NCBI GenBank assembly: GCA_963666285.1
Contig: OY762711.1
From: Sedimentisphaerales bacterium
GTDB lineage: Bacteria; Planctomycetota; Phycisphaerae; Sedimentisphaerales; SM23-30
Reading direction: 5' to 3' (one strand)
DNA length: 64,000 bases
Shown here: positions 36,589 to 63,607 of the stretch, piece after piece
Position numbering within the stretch: the stretch's first letter is position 1
How the letters are laid out: each line of letters starts with the position of its first letter
Made by a program: the position numbers and the translations under genes
Notes under the pieces: generated by a model
Told to the model about the DNA's origin: nothing
The model's database searches: none
Seen by the model: the letters and a program-made list of their open reading frames with translations, nothing else

Positions 36589-36600
36589 ATTCAAAATTTA

Positions 36601-36629
36601 TTCGTGAAAATTCGTGTCCATTCGTGGTT
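36601..36629 (+). repeat. TTCGTG decamer tandem repeat (empty IS1111 target type)
   Basis: ttcgtgaaaa ttcgtgtcca ttcgtggtt. Confidence 0.8.
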
Positions 36630-36751: not shown

Positions 36752-38088
36752 ACTGAACTTTTGCAAAATTAAAAAATTAACGTTAAAATGTGGTATAGAC
36801 CGATAAAATTTGATAGCAGAGCACTCCGAAAACCCAGAAAGGATTTTGGTATGCCAGCTATAGTACAATACCCTACAGTAGTCCAGCAAGCTGTCGATGA
36901 ATTTGGCGATCATTTTCAAAATGAGCCTGAACGTCGTCATTTTGCTGAGTATATCACCGGTCTTATCATTGCCCGCAAGAAAAACGTCTCTGCCATCAAC
37001 AGGGAATTTGCATTTGCCTCTGATCAATCCTGTCTCAACCGGTTTCTCACCGATGTTGAATGGGACGAAGAATCGCTTAACACTGCCAGACTGGAGTGGC
37101 TGCAGAAAGACCCTAAAACCAGATATAGCGATTCTGGGGTTATTGCCCTTGATAATGTTCTGATAGACCATAGTGGTAAACATATTGAGGATGTAGGATA
37201 TTTCTGGGATCATGCAGATCAACGTAATAAAATAGCCCATGATTACCTGATAGCCAATTATGTCTGTAATTCCGGGAAACATTATCCTTTGGAGTTTTAC
37301 AGATTTGTCAAAAAAGAAGATTGTCTGGAACGGGGCATTGAATTTCAGGATCATAATATCCTTTTCCGCAATCTGGTTGACTGGACTGTAGCTAACGATA
37401 TTCCCGGTGACTTTACCTTCGATAGCTGGTTTACCCATAGCGACAACCTTAACCATATAAACCAGTATGAACGTAATTATGTTGGTGATTTGAAAACAAA
37501 TCGTAAGACTATATTTCAGGGCAAAGTAATAAAGGCTGAAGAAGTAGCCAAATCTATTGACCCTGAAATCAAAAAACTCATAACTATTGGCAAGCATCGC
37601 CAATATTACTTTACTAAAAGTATCAGGATTCCTGGTGTAGACCACAAAGTACGTATCCTGATTATCTGGCATAAAAAGAATGATATTGAACCTAAAAAGA
37701 TTCTGGTTTGCAATCGATGCAACTGGGAAGCGATTCGTATCCTGAAGGTCTATCGCTGCCGCTGGCAAGGCACAGAGTGCTTTCATCGAGACGGCAAGCA
37801 GTATTTGGGCATGGGCGACTGTCAGCTTAGAAGCGGCCTGGGTCAGACAAGACACATGTACATGGTGTTTCTGGCGTATAGCGTACTTTTGACTCAAATG
37901 CAGCAGAACCGTGTGTGTGAATGGGCACGAGAACGCCTGACGACCATAGGACAATCTTGTATGGCAGTTATGCGAGAAACTCTCAGCAATACAATCGCTT
38001 GGGTGGTTGATCAAATCGAATCCAACGGAACAAGTTTTAAACGTATTAAAGTACAATTAGCTTTACCCTAATTTTGCAAAAGTTCAGT
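36752..38088 (+). mobile_element. IS701-like insertion sequence
   Basis: Perfect 20-bp TIR actgaacttttgcaaaatta; TATT duplication (or 19-bp TIR with TTATTA). Confidence 0.92.
36851..38071 (+). CDS. DDE transposase (IS701/IS4 superfamily)
   Basis: IALDNV, FDSWF, RW..ECFHRDGKQ; ATG 36851 has an AAGGA RBS (ORF open from 36788). Confidence 0.88.
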   Translation: MPAIVQYPTVVQQAVDEFGDHFQNEPERRHFAEYITGLIIARKKNVSAINREFAFASDQSCLNRFLTDVEWDEESLNTARLEWLQKDPKTRYSDSGVIALDNVLIDHSGKHIEDVGYFWDHADQRNKIAHDYLIANYVCNSGKHYPLEFYRFVKKEDCLERGIEFQDHNILFRNLVDWTVANDIPGDFTFDSWFTHSDNLNHINQYERNYVGDLKTNRKTIFQGKVIKAEEVAKSIDPEIKKLITIGKHRQYYFTKSIRIPGVDHKVRILIIWHKKNDIEPKKILVCNRCNWEAIRILKVYRCRWQGTECFHRDGKQYLGMGDCQLRSGLGQTRHMYMVFLAYSVLLTQMQQNRVCEWARERLTTIGQSCMAVMRETLSNTIAWVVDQIESNGTSFKRIKVQLALP

Positions 38089-39553: not shown

Positions 39554-40882
39554 ATGTTACTGAGTTTTACAGTTGAAAACTGGATGTCATTTAAAGAGCG
39601 GGCTTCATTTTCCATGGTTGCGACTCGTGAGAAGCAACATGGTGAAAGAGTTCCTTTTGTCAATAAGTATAAAACTAAAATATTACCTGTCGCTGCAATA
39701 TATGGTGGTAATGCTTCTGGTAAAACCAATTTTTTTAAAGCATTAAATTTTATTAAAAATATGGTTATTGACGTTAGGAAACCTGACAGTACTATTCCTG
39801 TCGAGCAATACCGCTTAGATAAAAAATGTTTATCTGTTCCTTCTTCTTTTGTGGTTGTGATTCTAGTCGATAATGAAATATATGAGTTTGCTTTTTCTTT
39901 AACAAAGACTTCGATTATTGAGGAAAAACTTGTACATATTAAAAGTGCAAGTGAAAAAGTATTGTATCATCGCAGAGGAAATAAAATTAATTTCACTGAA
40001 CCATTAACTAAAAACGATAGGCTTAAATTTGTGTTTGAAGGTACAAGGGATAATCAACTTTTTCTTTCAAACTCAATTATGCAAAAAATTGATATCTTTA
40101 AACCGGTATATGATTGGTTCAATGATAGACTTGAATTGATTGCGCCCGATACTCGTTTTGCATCATTTGAATATTTTTTTGATAGTGATAATCCTTTGTA
40201 CAATACAATGAATGAAATGTTGCCATTGCTTGATACCGGTATTTCTTTTTTGGGTGGCGAAGAAATTCCAATTGAAAATATATCGTTTCCTGATGAAATA
40301 AATAATGACATATTAGCGGATATTAAAGAGGGCATGTCAGCAAGAATAATTGATGTTAATAATAATGACCGCTTTATTGTTTCCAGAAAAGATGATAATC
40401 TGATTATAAAAAAAATGATTACAAAACATTCTACAATTGACGGAACTGATATAAAATTTGATATGAAACAAGAGTCTGATGGTTCGCAAAGGATTATAGA
40501 TCTACTACCAGCTTTTTTGAATATTTCTGACTCTAAATCACAAAAAGTATTTGTAATTGATGAACTTGATAGAAGTTTGCATACTTTATTGACAAGTAGG
40601 ATCTTGAATGCATACTTGGACAGTTGTTCCACGGAAAGCCGTTCTCAGTTATTATTTACTACTCATGACGTTCTACTTATGAATCAAGACCTGTTTAGGC
40701 GGGACGAAATGTGGGTAACTGAAAGAAATAGGCATGGAGCTTCAAAGCTTTGTTGTTTTAGTGAATACAAAGATGTTAGAAATGACAAAGATATTCGCAA
40801 AAGCTATCTTCAGGGAAGACTTGGCGGTATCCCTAAAATACTATTTAGTGGCAATCAACTATCGCTGAAAGGTGGTGGCTGA
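39554..40882 (+). CDS. rloA: AAA_21 ABC-type ATPase (RloA/AbiLi-like)
   Basis: [42 protein letters not shown]. Confidence 0.85.
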
Positions 40883-41475
40883 TGGTGAAAAATAGAAGAA
40901 GTCTCACTAGGCCGCAAGGTCAACGCCGCTATAAAAGGATGTACATTCTTGCCGTAGAAGGGGCTGTTACTGAAATTCAATATTTCAACATCCTCAATAA
41001 TGAAAATATTGTAGTTCATATTCATTGTTTAAGAGGTAATCATAAAAGTGCTCCAAAAAATGTCTTAGAAAGAATGGAAAAATATCTTAATATTAACGAA
41101 CTGAATGATAATGATCAGGCGTGGCTTGTTGTTGATAAGGATCAGTGGACTGACGGACAGTTAAATGAATTGTTTCAATGGTCACAACAAAAAGATAATT
41201 ACGGTTTTGCACTTAGTAATCCTAAATTTGAATATTGGCTTTTATTGCATTTTGAAGATGGGAATGGTGTTTCTAATTCAAGGCAGTGTACAGATAAGTT
41301 AAAACTCCATCTACCTGATTACCAAAAGCATATAAATCCACGAGAATTTACTATTGATAAAATTAAGCGTGCAATTCAAAGAGCAAAAATAAAGGATAAT
41401 CCTCCTTGTTCTGATTGGCCCCGTTCAACGGGAACCACTGTTTATCGTCTGGTGGAGCAAATTATGAAGTGTTGA
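40882..41475 (+). CDS. rloB: RloB-family protein
   Basis: VEGAVTE..YF, VVDKD, SNPKFEYWLLLHF; translationally coupled to the ATPase. Confidence 0.9.
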   Translation: MVKNRRSLTRPQGQRRYKRMYILAVEGAVTEIQYFNILNNENIVVHIHCLRGNHKSAPKNVLERMEKYLNINELNDNDQAWLVVDKDQWTDGQLNELFQWSQQKDNYGFALSNPKFEYWLLLHFEDGNGVSNSRQCTDKLKLHLPDYQKHINPREFTIDKIKRAIQRAKIKDNPPCSDWPRSTGTTVYRLVEQIMKC

Positions 41476-57591: not shown

Positions 57592-57944
57592 TTCGACCGC
57601 CTGTCATATCTGCTATTACCAAAACCGTCCCAAAACTAAGGACACCTTCTCCCAGCCATTATACCGCAACTTCTCTCCATGCCATACACCTTTTTTCCAT
57701 CCTCTTTGAGGCCAGGTATACAACAAATATACATCTTGTATAATAGGCAGGGTTGGCACAGTCACCACACAACCATTACTATTTCAAAACCGCCAATTCT
57801 CGCGTCAGCTTTAAATTTAATCGTCCGCAAATGCGGAAACCTTCTATCCATTTCATATTTTTTTCGTGAATTTTTGTGTATTTCTATGAAGCCAGAATGC
57901 AACATTAATTTTCTAATTTTATTCATTTTTGCTATAATTCCTTT

Positions 57945-58034
57945 ATCTTGCAAAGGATAGGGCTCTGCTGAGGAGCAACCCGAGCGTTGCAAGTTGTCGA
58001 GAAGCCGGGGCGGTTTTACACCGCCTCGTTTTTT
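57945..58034 (+). ncRNA. Candidate ~90-nt structured sRNA inside the IS right end
   Basis: TGcTATAAT, cttgcaa/ttgcaag stem, GC stem plus T-run terminator. Confidence 0.4.
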
Positions 58035-58094
58035 GCTTTTTGACCTTATGCGATAAACCTATTTAAAACAATTTTCGCGTAGCGAATCATTATT

Positions 58095-58260
58095 TACCTG
58101 ATTGTTTCATCTTTCTATCCGGAGTGTCCGAGGCTGTATTTTACGCCATGGTTCCATTATATATATTGCGATACGGCTTAATTTTCGTGTCAGGTTCAAA
58201 ACCCAAATGCACGACCAAGGTTCCGTATCGATTTCAATCGGGCAAAATCATAGGTAATAT
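58095..58260 (-). ncRNA. Candidate bridge/seekRNA of element 1 (limits approximate)
   Basis: Stem 58169-76/58223-30 encloses segments matching both target halves. Confidence 0.65.
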
Positions 58261-58282
58261 TTATATTTTACTTATATTGGTA

Positions 58283-59329
58283 TCAAACACTTTGCAATTC
58301 AGGCATCTGCCAACTTGTCCCATCTCGCATCATCGCCCACAATCGTACGAACAACCGTCGGGCTGTAGCTACTATCGCTATTTTTGCACGAGTTTTACTT
58401 CCCCTCTTTATTCTTTCGTATGTTTCTTTTATCCATGGATTCCAACGCAAACCCAGCCAGCAAACCTCAACAAGTAATGCTCGCAATAACCTATTGCCAT
58501 ATTTACTTATCCGCCCATGACGGTCTGTATTACCTGATTGGTACTGACGCGGTGTCATACCAATATAGCTGCCAACTTGTTTGCAATTCTTAAATCTATG
58601 TGGATCATCAATATAAGCTGCAACTGCCTCTGCCAGACGTGGGCCAACTCCGGGAACAGTCTGTAATAGTTTTACCTTTTCATCAGTACTATTTAACTCT
58701 TCCAGTTTATCTTCAACTACTTGCAAAGCGTCTGTTAATTGTTCCAGTAATATAAGCTCGCTCCATAGATTGCCTTTCCAGAGCTCATCTGGTTTAACTT
58801 TATCCATTGGCATAGCCATACTTCTTAACTGTTCCAGATTCTGCTTAGACCAGCACTTTCTGCCTGACGGCAACGAATACGCCTGGGCATTTAATAAAGA
58901 ACGAATAGTATTTTTTACCTGAGTTATCCGTTCTGTAAGGCTCTGGCGATAATTAATTAAAGATCGTTTCTCTCGAATTTCCTTTTTAGGAACATAGACA
59001 GTTGATAAATCTCCTAAAGCAGCACGCTTGGCCAGCCAAAATGCATCCTTTTTATCTGTTTTCTTCTTCAATTTTCTGCCAGACCATTCGCCGGTATTAG
59101 TATTTGCCACTTCATATTTTAATTCCAGGGTGTCAAAAAGGTCACAAATCCAGCCTATGATATCACAAGCCTCAAATACAATAAGATCAGCAGGGTGAGA
59201 TACTGCCAGGTCATGAAGCTCTTGAGGGTTAGTCTTAAACGACTTATATATAGCCTTACAGCTTTTTACCTCATAAAAACAAACTACACTCTTGAATTTT
59301 CCTAAATCAATTGACATAATAGTCTTCAT
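58283..59329 (-). CDS. IS110-family DEDD recombinase
   Basis: SIDLGK, FEAC, KTDKKDA, VPGVG, YQSG, ARRL. Confidence 0.95.
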   Translation of the reverse strand: MKTIMSIDLGKFKSVVCFYEVKSCKAIYKSFKTNPQELHDLAVSHPADLIVFEACDIIGWICDLFDTLELKYEVANTNTGEWSGRKLKKKTDKKDAFWLAKRAALGDLSTVYVPKKEIREKRSLINYRQSLTERITQVKNTIRSLLNAQAYSLPSGRKCWSKQNLEQLRSMAMPMDKVKPDELWKGNLWSELILLEQLTDALQVVEDKLEELNSTDEKVKLLQTVPGVGPRLAEAVAAYIDDPHRFKNCKQVGSYIGMTPRQYQSGNTDRHGRISKYGNRLLRALLVEVCWLGLRWNPWIKETYERIKRGSKTRAKIAIVATARRLFVRLWAMMRDGTSWQMPELQSV

Positions 59330-59638
59330 AGCCAGAATACTCCGTATAAAATTGGTTAAATATTTGAGCGTCCCTGTGACAGCTCGTGCTAAAATTATTG
59401 TGTATTATAACACAAGCCATGCTACAGGAATATTCTGGCTTTCATTGTATTTTCGTGGTTCTAAAAAAATATTAAAGTACAAGCGTTCTTATCGAGCTAT
59501 AGCTTTAGCGAAGCCTGAAATGAGTATCCTCTTTATTCTTTGCGATCTTTGCGGCCTTTGCGAGAGACAAATCCTATCAAAACCACTCTGCTTAATATCA
59601 TTCCAATCTCCAACCAAACCAGCATCGTTAAGGACATA

Positions 59639-60000: not shown

Positions 60001-60118
60001 AACGAAGCCTCTCTTCTCCCTCCTCGCTTCTAACTCTCTTCATTCGTGAAAATATGAAGAAAAGGCATCCTAAGGTATAATATATACCAAAACAAACTTT
60101 TATACGAAAGGATGCCTC

Positions 60119-61150
60119 ATGAACAACATACATTATATTGGAACAGATTTGCATAGCAACAATATTGAGCTGGCAATTCGTTACAGGCAGAAGGTAATCC
60201 AGAGATATTCTCTGCCGACATCGTTGCCTCCTGTTTTGGAGGTTATAAGCTCCATCAAAGGCAAAAAACAGATGGCAGTAGAGGAAGGCCCCATGGCAGG
60301 CTGGCTTTATCGCGGCGTATTTGGCAAAGTTGACAGGTTTGTAATCGCAGAACCTCGCCGTAACAAGCTGATAAGCTCAGAAGGCGATCATGATGATGAA
60401 ATTGATTCTGCAAAACTTGCAATGCTGCTGGAAGGAGGCCTTTTGAAGGAAGTTTATCATCCTCTAAATAGAGAGCAAGCGGTATTTAAAAAGTGGGTAA
60501 CTCTTTACCATGACAATGTTAAGGATGCAGTAAGAAGTATTAACAAAATCAGAGCCTGTTGTCGTATGGAAGCCATAAGAATACCCAGATATGTAATAAA
60601 AAACCCTGACAAACGTGACAAATGGCTTTCGGAGCTTGAATATACAGACATTGCCGAGCAATTAATGTTGCTGCTTATCGGCTACGATGCAGCTTCCTGC
60701 CAGTGTAGACTTGCCAGGCAAAAAATCATGACTCTAAGTAAATCTTATCCGGTAATTAAGCAATTTCAGGAGCTGCCCGGAGTTGGCATAATACGAGCAG
60801 TAACCTTCCTGGCATATATCGATACGCCATGGAGGTTTAAGAAAAAAAGTCAATTATGGAAATATTGCGGCATTGGACTTGAACGTACAACCAGCGGCAA
60901 AGACAAATATGGCAACTCAAAACCGGCAAAACTTAAATTGCCTTACAACTGTAATCGCACTCTTAAAAATGTAATAATTGGTGCCGCTTTAAGTGCTATC
61001 AGGCAAAAGAATAGTACATATGCCCAGGATTATGAAAGGATGATCTCAAATGGTGTAAATAGATCAAATGCTCGCCATACCGTTGCCAGGAAAATACTGA
61101 CAACTATGTGGGGGATTTGGAAAAGCAGCTTTCAGTATAATACGGATTAA
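60119..61150 (+). CDS. IS110-family DEDD recombinase
   Basis: GTDLH, VEEG, DDEID, LPGVG, TSG, ARKI. Confidence 0.93.
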   Translation: MNNIHYIGTDLHSNNIELAIRYRQKVIQRYSLPTSLPPVLEVISSIKGKKQMAVEEGPMAGWLYRGVFGKVDRFVIAEPRRNKLISSEGDHDDEIDSAKLAMLLEGGLLKEVYHPLNREQAVFKKWVTLYHDNVKDAVRSINKIRACCRMEAIRIPRYVIKNPDKRDKWLSELEYTDIAEQLMLLLIGYDAASCQCRLARQKIMTLSKSYPVIKQFQELPGVGIIRAVTFLAYIDTPWRFKKKSQLWKYCGIGLERTTSGKDKYGNSKPAKLKLPYNCNRTLKNVIIGAALSAIRQKNSTYAQDYERMISNGVNRSNARHTVARKILTTMWGIWKSSFQYNTD

Positions 61151-61204
61151 GATATCGTAATTTATACTCTTTCAAAATATTATGATTTTCTAATAGTCTT
61201 TTTG

Positions 61205-61350
61205 CATAACAGCAAAGAGTTCCGTTTCAACCACTGGACAGGCAAGAACTTGAACCCGATTCGTGAATGAACCTTTGCTTTTAGACGTGCCTCTTTTCTT
61301 TTTATGAACTGCCCAAAGGGCATGTTCCCAATAGATGGTTGGCAGCATAA
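61205..61350 (+). ncRNA. Candidate bridge/seekRNA of element 2 (limits approximate)
   Basis: Two stem-loops with segments matching the target (aaccac, attcgtg) and the donor end (atagatg). Confidence 0.65.
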
Positions 61351-61735
61351 TTTAATTTACGGCTATACACAATTTTATAAAAGAATTGACCGAACAGAAA
61401 ATTGTAGTTATTGAAAAAATCGCAAAATTACAAAAAAGATATCTATGACATGTACCTGCTGATGCAATAACTTACAACAAACGTATGGATGCCCTCAAAG
61501 TAATTCATTCGAATTAGAAATTTTTTAACTTGACTTTGAGTTCTTCATAGATGGTTTAGCTCTTAGCCCGCCCGCGCGATTCTAAACAATCTCGGCAAAG
61601 CCGGATTAATTATTACTAGTCCCGCCATGAACGACAACATACAGCTGCTGCCAGCAAGCCCGTGGAACAAAAGCCACCCAAAACATCTCAAGCCCTGTCA
61701 AGGGCGACAGAAACTATACTTCATAATGATTTTTC

Positions 61736-63607
61736 TTATTTAAATAATTCTGGAGCAATTAATTTGAGTTCATTATCAACTTCTGTGCGATCATATCCTA
61801 AATCAATTAAAAGATTGCCGTAATTATTAATTGAATCAATTAAATTAGTATGTTGATGGCCGGTTTTACGTGAAAACTCAAGAAATATTTCTATTACCCT
61901 TTTAGCTATTGAAAGAGCTTCTTTTGTTCTGCTGGTTGCCTGGTACAGCATAGCTAGATTGTTTAGGTCTTTAGCTAGGTTCGGATGGTTTGGGCCAAAT
62001 AAAACTTCATCTATTTCTATTGCTCTTAACATTAGTGGTTCAGCCTTTGAATATTGTTTAGAGTAATTGTATAGAGCTGCGAGATTACTTATTGCTGTTG
62101 CTAGACTCGGATGTTGCATTCCATAAGCTTCTTCATAAATAGATATAGATTTGGTAAGTAAGCGTTCAGCTTCAGAAAAGCGACTTATATCTAGGTAATA
62201 ATTTGCAATATTGTTTAAATCTCTCGCTACTGCTGGATGATTTGGCCCGTACAATTTTTGGTCAATTTCAAGTGCTTGTATAAACAGTGGTTCAACTTTT
62301 GACATTTGGCCCGTATGTTCATAATAGGCACCCAGATTATTTAGAGAAAGTGCGGTATTGGGGTGTATTTCTCCATAAGCATTTTTATCAATTTCCAGTG
62401 TACGAAGTAATAGTGGTTCTACCTCAGAAAGTCGATTTGTATCTTTATAAATCATCGCAAGATTATTATACCATGGGGCTAAAATTGAATTATCTTTTCC
62501 TAATGTCTTTATTCCTATTGATATTGCTTTAGTCAACAAATCCTCTGCTTCTGCTAAGCGATTTGTCGCTTGGAATAATTGAGCTAAAACATTATATGCG
62601 ATAGCAATGCTATGATGATCCTCTCCGTAGTATCTATCATATATGTCAATAGCTTTTTTAATATATGACTCAGCAATTTTAAATTTATTAATAGTTTTAT
62701 AAAGTTGTGCTAAGTTAAGATATGCCGAAGCTAAACCTATATAGTCTTTGCCATAATTAGATTTAAATATTTCAATTGCGCGAATCATAAGCTGTTCAGC
62801 TTTAAAAATTCGTCCGGTATTAAAGTACAATTGGGCAAGATTATTTAATGTGATTCCTGTATTGGGATGGTTTTCTCCATATTTAAGTTTATCAGTTTCC
62901 AGTATATTGAGGATAAATGATTCAGCTTTCACGTATTGAGCTGTATGAATGTAAATGCAGGCAAGTTCATTTTTTCTACGATCAATAATATCCTGTAATT
63001 GACTGTATTTTGGTGGGTTATTTAACCATTGCTCTAATTCTGATTGACGGTTAAGCAAATCCTCATGACTCATTGAATTGATTAGTTCCGCATAATCATT
63101 ATTTGATATAGGTGGTAAGTCATCTATTCGCTTTTGCCAATTTGACATGTCTGAAAAATATAAATGATGACTTATCCATGCCCAAAAGTCTCTTGCGATT
63201 CTAGAAATGATAGTTGTTAAATATTCGGGTAGCCAGAATATAACTGGGCTTTGAAAGTGACGTTTCCATTTTTCTCTTGATAAATTTAGTTCCTGAATTA
63301 AATTTATGTTAGTATGGTTGTTGGTTACTAGTGATTCTATATTAGTAATGAAGATAGCTGTTGGTTTATGGTATTTAATTTTAAGCAGAACTTGATCTAA
63401 AATACTTCTACTTGAATCAGTAATTTCAATTATAAGAATATTTTTGTGAATTGCATTTATATTTGAAATAATGCTATTTCTAATTTCGATTGTTTGGAAT
63501 GTAGCAACTGCAAAAGAGCATGTACCTTCGCTTATTTCAATCAGTTTATTAAGATGGTTGAAGTTTTGTTTACTTTCATCAGTTAATATTGTATCAATGT
63601 CTATCAT
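61736..63607 (-). CDS. TPR-repeat protein with degenerate NTPase-like N-terminal domain
   Basis: About nine 42-aa G..HP..A..LNNLA repeats; N-terminal LNLSRE..PVIFWLP..DFWAW. Confidence 0.85.
   Translation of the reverse strand: MIDIDTILTDESKQNFNHLNKLIEISEGTCSFAVATFQTIEIRNSIISNINAIHKNILIIEITDSSRSILDQVLLKIKYHKPTAIFITNIESLVTNNHTNINLIQELNLSREKWKRHFQSPVIFWLPEYLTTIISRIARDFWAWISHHLYFSDMSNWQKRIDDLPPISNNDYAELINSMSHEDLLNRQSELEQWLNNPPKYSQLQDIIDRRKNELACIYIHTAQYVKAESFILNILETDKLKYGENHPNTGITLNNLAQLYFNTGRIFKAEQLMIRAIEIFKSNYGKDYIGLASAYLNLAQLYKTINKFKIAESYIKKAIDIYDRYYGEDHHSIAIAYNVLAQLFQATNRLAEAEDLLTKAISIGIKTLGKDNSILAPWYNNLAMIYKDTNRLSEVEPLLLRTLEIDKNAYGEIHPNTALSLNNLGAYYEHTGQMSKVEPLFIQALEIDQKLYGPNHPAVARDLNNIANYYLDISRFSEAERLLTKSISIYEEAYGMQHPSLATAISNLAALYNYSKQYSKAEPLMLRAIEIDEVLFGPNHPNLAKDLNNLAMLYQATSRTKEALSIAKRVIEIFLEFSRKTGHQHTNLIDSINNYGNLLIDLGYDRTEVDNELKLIAPELFK

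Follow-up and report, generated by a model that had tools for sequence, protein, structure and literature searches.

The systems most closely resembling the locus studied here are the IS1111 elements guided by a seekRNA or bridge RNA, IS621, and the IS110-family elements ISPpu9 and ISPpu10. In the portions of text considered, the subterminal inverted repeats of the IS1111 group are given as 7–17 bp long (PMC11208160) or usually 11–13 bp long (PMC11187229), their spacing of 7 bp at one end and 3 bp at the other is described as a feature of the group (PMC11187229), and the rule in the RNA is that the top-strand complement comes first and the bottom-strand match second (PMC11187229). The handshake bases of IS621, as presented in parts of PMC11208158 and PMC13626964, are located after the right guides; once the exchange has taken place, they pair with the top strand of the partner and favor insertion. 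ISPpu9 and ISPpu10, the proteins of which show 57.8% similarity, are reported to share one insertion position within the REP sequences of Pseudomonas putida (parts of PMC1525189 and PMC12288879).

The window analyzed here is a stretch of 64,000 nucleotides from contig OY762711.1 of a Sedimentisphaerales bacterium (assembly GCA_963666285.1). It carries the insertion sequences called element 1 and element 2 below, and a third, element 3, occurs in the same genome. Element 2 is an intact bridge-RNA element of IS1111 type. The explanation which accounts best for the data, and which we hold to be very probable, is that element 2 was recently mobile and that three IS1111 lineages settled independently on one repeat.

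Extent, Copies, and Insertion Sites of Element 2

Element 2 occupies positions 60049–61553 on the plus strand (1505 bp including one TG core), and its TG cores are located at 60047–60048 and 61552–61553. A preliminary description of this DNA had placed it at 60041–61560: the element is real, but that span includes a few host bases. On its left, ATTCG forms one half of the broken target and is followed by the core (60042–60048, plus strand); this stretch reads (A/T)TTCG-TG in all three copies and matches the left target guide. On its right, the core is followed by the right half, GTTTAG (61552–61559, plus strand). Besides the repeat at 36619–36629, the genome contains another empty copy, which is nearly identical to the rebuilt site of element 2 over about 30 bases on each side and is unbroken across the site. 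TG flanks both ends of the element in 3/3 copies, and this short core at both junctions, with no other target duplication, is typical of the IS110 family. A joint in the run contigs spanning the element was considered as a possible empty allele of the locus and rejected, as it corresponds to an empty paralogous repeat.

The chromosome contains three copies of element 2, differing by at most one synonymous base, and the contig depth over the element was about 2.5 times that of the flanks (two runs, one sample). When the copies were catalogued, all three were found to share one type of site, (A/T)TTCG-TG-GTT, as expected from the preliminary description. An AAA_21 ATPase with a downstream partner gene was also noted, and a 623-aa TPR protein is encoded directly to the right of element 2 (window positions 39554–41475 and 61736–63607).

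The left end is 70 bp and the right end 403 bp long, and this long downstream non-coding region is characteristic of the IS1111 group. The 8-bp subterminal inverted repeats, both on the plus strand, are ATGAAGAA (60054–60061), which begins 7 bp from the core start and is kept in relatives, and TTCTTCAT (61541–61548), which ends 3 bp ahead of the core. Their spacing is therefore that of the IS1111 group, and their length falls inside the 7–17 bp range but under the usual 11–13 bp. The IS1111-type identity previously assigned to element 2 is borne out by this 7/3 spacing, together with the TG core, the DEDD/Ser recombinase, and the predicted downstream RNA.

Recombinase of Element 2

The gene at 60119–61150 (plus strand) encodes an IS110-family recombinase of 343 aa, which was matched by PF02371 above the cut-off; no match was obtained with PF01548, and the NF033542 score of 95 bits is below the cut-off of 140. 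A search at E 1e-20 yielded 1,349 proteins, and when the query was aligned with 59 homologues out of the 120 listed, residues D10, E55, D93, D96, and S259-G260 were found to be invariant. The structure model (pLDDT 83.8) showed a fold match to IS621 and ISCro4 with a TM of about 0.53, an E of 1e-10 to 1e-13, and 14–16% identity, while the search of PDB sequences with the 60-protein profile gave no match at E 0.001. The protein combines the RuvC-like DEDD domain and the Tnp domain with catalytic serine typical of the IS110 family: it is a divergent yet ordinary bridge recombinase.

Bridge RNA and Guides

The relatives studied come from 85 loci, namely 80 metagenomic ones (the best 80 of 371 confirmed), one found in a single-protein scan of GTDB genomes, one from a genome of the same family, and the three copies of the host itself; none of the 27 candidates from viral contigs was confirmed. 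The right ends of 71 loci could be aligned, two of the host copies being left out, and they formed 59 clusters at 90% RNA identity, 53 of which have a left flank and 49 a right flank. The matches between guides and flanks were compared with 20,000 shuffles.

RNAalifold, run on 48 RNAs, predicted two stem-loops, each with a 13 × 13 internal loop, and compensatory changes were found in 22 of the 31 pairs. In element 2, this consensus places a target-binding stem-loop at 61211–61278 and a donor-binding stem-loop at 61288–61344 (both plus strand). The z values of the single-sequence fold (−1.2 and −1.6) are not significant, so that it is the alignment which supports the structure. All the guides are likewise on the plus strand. 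The right target guide TTCAAC-CA-C (61226–61234) pairs with the top strand G-TG-GTTGAA, and the left target guide ATTCG-TG is followed by a handshake-like AA (61259–61267). In the donor loop, the right guide TTTT-TA-T (61299–61305) pairs with A-TG-AAAA with one U.G wobble, and the left guide ATAGA-TG, followed by a handshake-like G(T) (61331–61339), tracks the right end and, through its extension, the right target flank. The short motifs singled out in the preliminary description were all found in place: agcaaag at 61211, ctttgct at 61273, aaccac at 61229, attcgtg at 61259, atagatg at 61331 and 61547, cattcgtggtt at 36619, and ttgact at 61530.

The target guides covary with the DNA which they are predicted to read. 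The left guide matched the left flank (−5 to −1) in 43, 52, 45, 43, and 53 of the 53 clusters (shuffled means 22, 46, 26, 23, and 47), and the right guide matched the right flank (+1 to +6) in 46, 45, 33, 35, 38, and 29 of 49 (shuffled means 30, 18.5, 22, 23, 24, and 20). At any position of the target guides, these counts were reached by at most one of the 20,000 shuffles, and outside the guides no signal was detected at −7, −6, and +7. Since the flanks are host DNA, it is targeting that these matches reveal, although guides are still shared among related elements. The left donor guide was identical to the right end in 50/50 cases, and the A which replaces G at −1 in element 2 only is present in this guide and in the right end alike. 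The right donor guide, which was absent from the preliminary description, tracks the left end at +3 in 54 of 55 cases (46.6 in shuffles). When the dinucleotides of the 380-nt right end were shuffled 20,000 times, all three guide words were found together, on either strand, in 0.04% of the shuffles; the covariation in relatives is a stronger test than this one. The guides initially proposed were correctly assigned, each of them changing with the flanking DNA in about 50 distinct relatives.

A predicted RNA with target and donor loops covarying with DNA is typical of the IS110 family, and the location of the right guide (61226–61234) ahead of the left guide (61259–61265) is that of the IS1111 group. 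The recombinase would bind an RNA made from the right end, the target loop of which would read five bases to the left of the TG core and up to six to its right, the other loop reading the circle junction.

Promoters and Left-End Hairpin

The right end carries the −35-like hexamer TTGACT of a putative circle-junction promoter (61530–61535, plus strand), and TTGAC is present in 49 of 50 right ends. The hexamer located 17 bases past TTGAC is a weak −10, reading GAAGAT in 42 of 46 junctions and GAAAAT in 3 of 46. The circle junction of element 2 does read TTGACT-N17-GAAAAT, as was initially proposed, but GAAAAT is a poor −10 which has a competitor in a conserved internal TATAAT. The latter (60076–60081, plus strand), a candidate −10 of an internal promoter, was present at a constant distance of 29 bases from the core start in 53 of 55 left ends. 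The circle junction of element 2 was detected neither in the assembly nor in the contigs of four runs, in which rare forms are dropped; no RNA run was among the sequencing runs listed, which has no bearing on expression. A circular intermediate with a junction promoter is typical of the IS110 family; element 2 would form circles and presumably uses IS621-like catalysis.

A hairpin is predicted at 60063–60117 (plus strand; arms 60063–60071 and 60109–60117), for which RNAalifold gave 11 pairs on 41 left ends, two of them with a compensatory change, that is, a weak covariation. It would mask the ribosome-binding site of the recombinase gene in transcripts starting upstream of the hairpin. By analogy with IS10 and IS50, on one reading, the internal promoter would give a translatable mRNA, whereas junction and read-through transcripts would supply RNA with little protein. 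In one relative (L032), the right end of a different IS1111-type element seems to have taken the place of the left end at the ribosome-binding site, and another relative (L054) shows a short tandem duplication of the right end.

The Repeat and Its Three Occupants

The empty target repeat at 36600–36629 (plus strand) consists of three 10-bp-phased ATTCGTG units ending in GTGGTT; a DDE transposase gene (PF13546, window positions 36788–38071) starts about 160 bases past it. In the genome, the repeat takes the form of arrays of 9–10-bp-phased units ending in GTGGT, with 51 pattern matches, 40 of which are outside ORFs; the Markov control gave none in 2 Mb, a figure which understates chance, given the 11 ORF-located matches among the 51. 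A link of the repeat to GxxExxY genes was considered; PF13366 was not found in the genome of element 2, in which there are 10 four-helix-bundle matches. In the literature searched, we found no description of the phased repeat and no report of IS110 targets in planctomycetes; PMC4679880 deals, in the portion of its text considered, with a different heptamer.

The genome contains 17 PF02371 genes in four groups, with nine, four, and three copies on the chromosome and one on contig C4. Element 1, one of the nine copies of an IS1111-type element with an AA core, lies at 57881–59450 on the minus strand (recombinase 58283–59329), and its site is a further copy of the repeat family in which element 2 lies. 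A right donor guide could not be clearly recognized in element 1, and in its donor loop (window positions 58135–58142, minus strand) a same-sense 8-base copy of the left end was seen on the 5′ side, where a complement would be expected. Element 3 (L116) is also of IS1111 type, with copies at G000:C1:2394583, 1590951, 5026696, and 5746179; in both left guides of its RNA, the core position is AG instead of AT. The element on contig C4 (L117, G000:C4:42407–44577) is a fourth IS110-family element with a long upstream non-coding region; by eye, a long hairpin seems common to this region and the distal part of the right end of element 3.

The 16 rebuilt chromosomal sites read AAC[CA]CGA[AA/AT], element 2 being inserted in reverse (at CA), element 1 forward three bases further on (at AA), and element 3 also forward (at AT). 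The opposite orientation and different core which had been ascribed to element 2 with respect to element 1 are therefore visible in the rebuilt sites. The two elements do not form a pair, as had been suggested, since the third one shares the anchor: elements 1 (AA, nine copies) and 3 (AT, four copies) use the same AACCACGAA anchor 3 bp away and in the orientation opposite to that of element 2. Among the chromosomal IS1111 insertions, 15/16 are at AACCACGA and the remaining one at AACCACTG. One copy of element 2 occupies the repeat subfamily favored by element 1 and two that used by element 3.

Element 2 would insert in the last unit of the short intergenic repeat with its 9–10-bp-phased units, and such abundant intergenic repeats would offer harmless landing sites, most likely the motive for this choice. 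A preference beyond the guide match cannot be deduced from three copies, because three non-coding hits would occur by chance about once in three (16 of the 49 intact sites matching element 2 are inside ORFs). Helical phasing, a flanking hairpin, or another structural or protein-bound feature of the repeat might also set the choice of site and draw unrelated elements. All 16 insertions are indeed in repeat contexts, and a target stem-loop is described as a second determinant for ISPpu10 in part of a preprint (bioRxiv 10.64898/2026.03.19.712850). However, the guide matches suffice to explain the sites, relatives with retuned guides are present at unrelated sites, including tRNA-like ones, and the preference is not significant at three copies; we regard a contribution of this kind as unlikely.

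The insertion of element 1 or 3 keeps the element 2 site intact, as in eight and three such junctions, respectively, among the 58 TTCGTGGTT sites, and no doubly occupied repeat was seen in the genome. One recombinase might use the RNA or the ends of another, and sharing the repeat would then reflect partial cooperation or parasitism. By eye, all three RNAs have two loops, a left target guide followed by AAT, and a left donor guide containing ATAG, and every right end finishes with CATAG(A/G); moreover, RNA-only modules using the recombinase of another element are described for ISPpu9 in part of PMC12288879. Against such an exchange, cores and subterminal repeats differ between the elements, no solo end or solo RNA loop of element 2 was found in the genome, where only the three full copies are present, and there is no chimera among the 16 chromosomal copies. 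We consider it improbable. The orthogonality raised as a possibility in the preliminary description would require each recombinase to work with its own RNA and ends and no others, a point on which these sequence data bear indirectly.

Probable Independent Arrival on the Repeat

The proteins of the three elements are indeed very divergent, as the preliminary description had stated (23–35% identity overall): elements 2 and 1 share 27% over 164 residues, elements 2 and 3 share 24%, and elements 1 and 3 share 35%. A quick tree was built with 52 proteins (26 from the element 2 side, 14 of the 30 element 1 loci, 11 of the 18 element 3 loci, and the C4 element), on which target labels were set by eye. 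Elements 1, 2, and 3 fall in separate clades (SH-aLRT 100%), and a tree uniting them in one clade was rejected (p-AU 0.0004). Among the relatives of element 1 from other hosts with callable ends, none was seen by eye to have the anchor; one locus of the element 1 side (L100) lies in a sequence resembling the initiator tRNA-Met of the host. Three relatives of element 3 (52–65% identity) are in repeat-like sites, and another, at 55%, uses a different repeat. In the clade of element 2, 20 of 49 sites follow the phased unit, as compared with 113 of 5,829 matching host sites (1.9%), and 29 of 49 fail the strict phased-repeat pattern.

The repeat, or something similar, could have been the original target of these IS1111 lineages, other targets resulting from later retargeting. 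Repeat-like sites do recur in the element 2 clade down to 34% identity (the G158 copies), in the above kin of element 3, and in a fourth lineage (L150). On the other hand, the elements differ in their cores, positions, strands, and guide sequences, the target label requires at least eight changes on the tree, and the sisters of element 1 (L089 and L094, 45–47% identity) aim at (A)TTA/GTAA-AG-GG(G)TC. An ancestral target therefore seems very unlikely to us. The fact that the recombinases belong to separate clades and that elements 1 and 3 have close relatives with other targets supports convergence, that is, the separate arrival of three lineages on the repeat: the two other lineages of this genome would have reached the same 9-bp anchor independently, with cores of their own (AA and AT) and in the opposite orientation.

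Of the convergence which had been proposed, this independent arrival holds, but not the local programming of element 2: since many relatives from other samples (the 20 of 49) share its aim, element 2 probably inherited its guides and arrived at the repeat already programmed. Its clade is a large one, in which the TG core is nearly fixed and the guides have been retuned to many variants of the repeat and sometimes to tRNA-like sites. Some relatives with retuned guides are present at a tRNA-Phe-like sequence, the target resembling the stretch from the anticodon to the T arm in one subclade (L006, L020, L026, L028, L031, L035, L038, and L058). ARAGORN detected no tRNA in any of the 10 loci with suspected broken tRNA targets, so that the resemblance is based on comparison with host tRNAs. 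The relative at 34% identity (G158) has five copies in phased repeats (L126, L134, and L137–L139), has CG in place of TG at its right junction, and shows a direct tandem arrangement of two of the copies. The fourth lineage (L150, from G256), which shows 36% identity to element 3, has a TG core, a CTTCGTG left guide, and a repeat-like site.

Handshake-Like Bases and Strand Geometry

The guide order is the same in element 1 (right guide 58214–58206, then left guide 58189–58181) and in element 2, as previously noted; it is not a coincidence or evidence of convergence, however, but the family rule of IS1111, as given in the part of PMC11187229 considered. The bases next to the left guides bear on the meaning of this order. 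In 54 of 55 cases the left end opens with the same two bases as the AA that follows the left target guide; this AA is invariant, and hence without covariation. The base following the left donor guide tracks target position +1 in 41 of 49 cases (29.7 in shuffles) and inspection by eye showed the same in 6 of 8 relatives that are more distant; no signal was detected at +2 and +3.

Viewed on the opposite strand, the RNA of element 2 has a layout which suggests that of IS621. We infer from this that the reversed guide order of the IS1111 group may reflect swapped strands rather than a different mechanism, and the handshake-like bases after the left guides would mean that the bottom strand is exchanged first in element 2. 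The signal at issue is confined to one column, with eight misses in 49 and few independent events. This explanation of the IS1111 guide order was not found stated in the portions of literature text searched. If it is true, the design rules of IS621 (handshake bases, insertion vs. excision) carry over directly to IS1111-type tools.

A broader joint reading, which we put forward tentatively and with rather less than even confidence, would be that a widespread and apparently undescribed phased repeat serves as a landing pad for at least three to four converged IS1111 lineages, that the TG, AA, and AT elements form a mutually orthogonal trio able to address one 13-bp anchor while leaving one another's sites intact, and that IS1111 elements carry out the IS621 reaction with top and bottom strands interchanged, so that the "reversed guide order" would need no mechanism of its own.

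Comparison with Known Systems

Element 2 is a real, well-supported addition to the IS1111 bridge-RNA group and not a new kind of system. In common with the seekRNA or bridge RNA elements ISEc11, ISPa11, and IS4321, as described in parts of PMC11187229 and PMC11208160, it has a short left end and a long RNA-bearing right end, 7/3-bp spacing of the subterminal repeats, the top-strand complement first, one fixed orientation in a specific target, and a DEDD recombinase of about 340 aa with an SG motif. It differs from them in its recombinase, which is under the NCBIfam cut-off and has no PDB sequence match, in its weak junction −10 accompanied by a conserved internal TATAAT, and in its donor guides, which lie in a simple 13 × 13 internal loop like that of IS621, whereas many IS1111 RNAs are multi-loop (part of PMC11208160).

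With IS621 (PDB 8WT6 and 8WT9; parts of PMC11208158 and PMC13626964), element 2 shares the fold, the catalytic residues, a two-loop RNA, a 2-bp core, and, presumably, handshake bases pairing with the partner DNA after exchange and favoring insertion. The RNA is in the left end and the core is CT in IS621, while the RNA is in the right end and the core is TG in element 2; in the former, the handshake bases come after the right guides and have the top strands as pairing partners, whereas in the latter they come after the left guides and their predicted partners are the bottom strands. The clade of element 2 provides about 50 naturally reprogrammed guide–target pairs; the recombinase to which they belong is divergent and of IS1111 type, and its two-loop RNA resembles that of IS621.

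That several IS110-family elements use one repeat is already known from ISPpu9 and ISPpu10, which, like the elements studied here, are different members of the family inserted in the same intergenic repeat family of one genome. In that case, two elements use one position of a palindromic REP; elements 1–3, with 23–35% identity, three cores, two positions, and both orientations, use a phased direct repeat. What is added here is a clean natural experiment, in which one host contains three distantly related recombinases, each with a core of its own, that address one anchor, so that the cross-reaction, core preference, and orientation of elements 1–3 can be tested on a single substrate.
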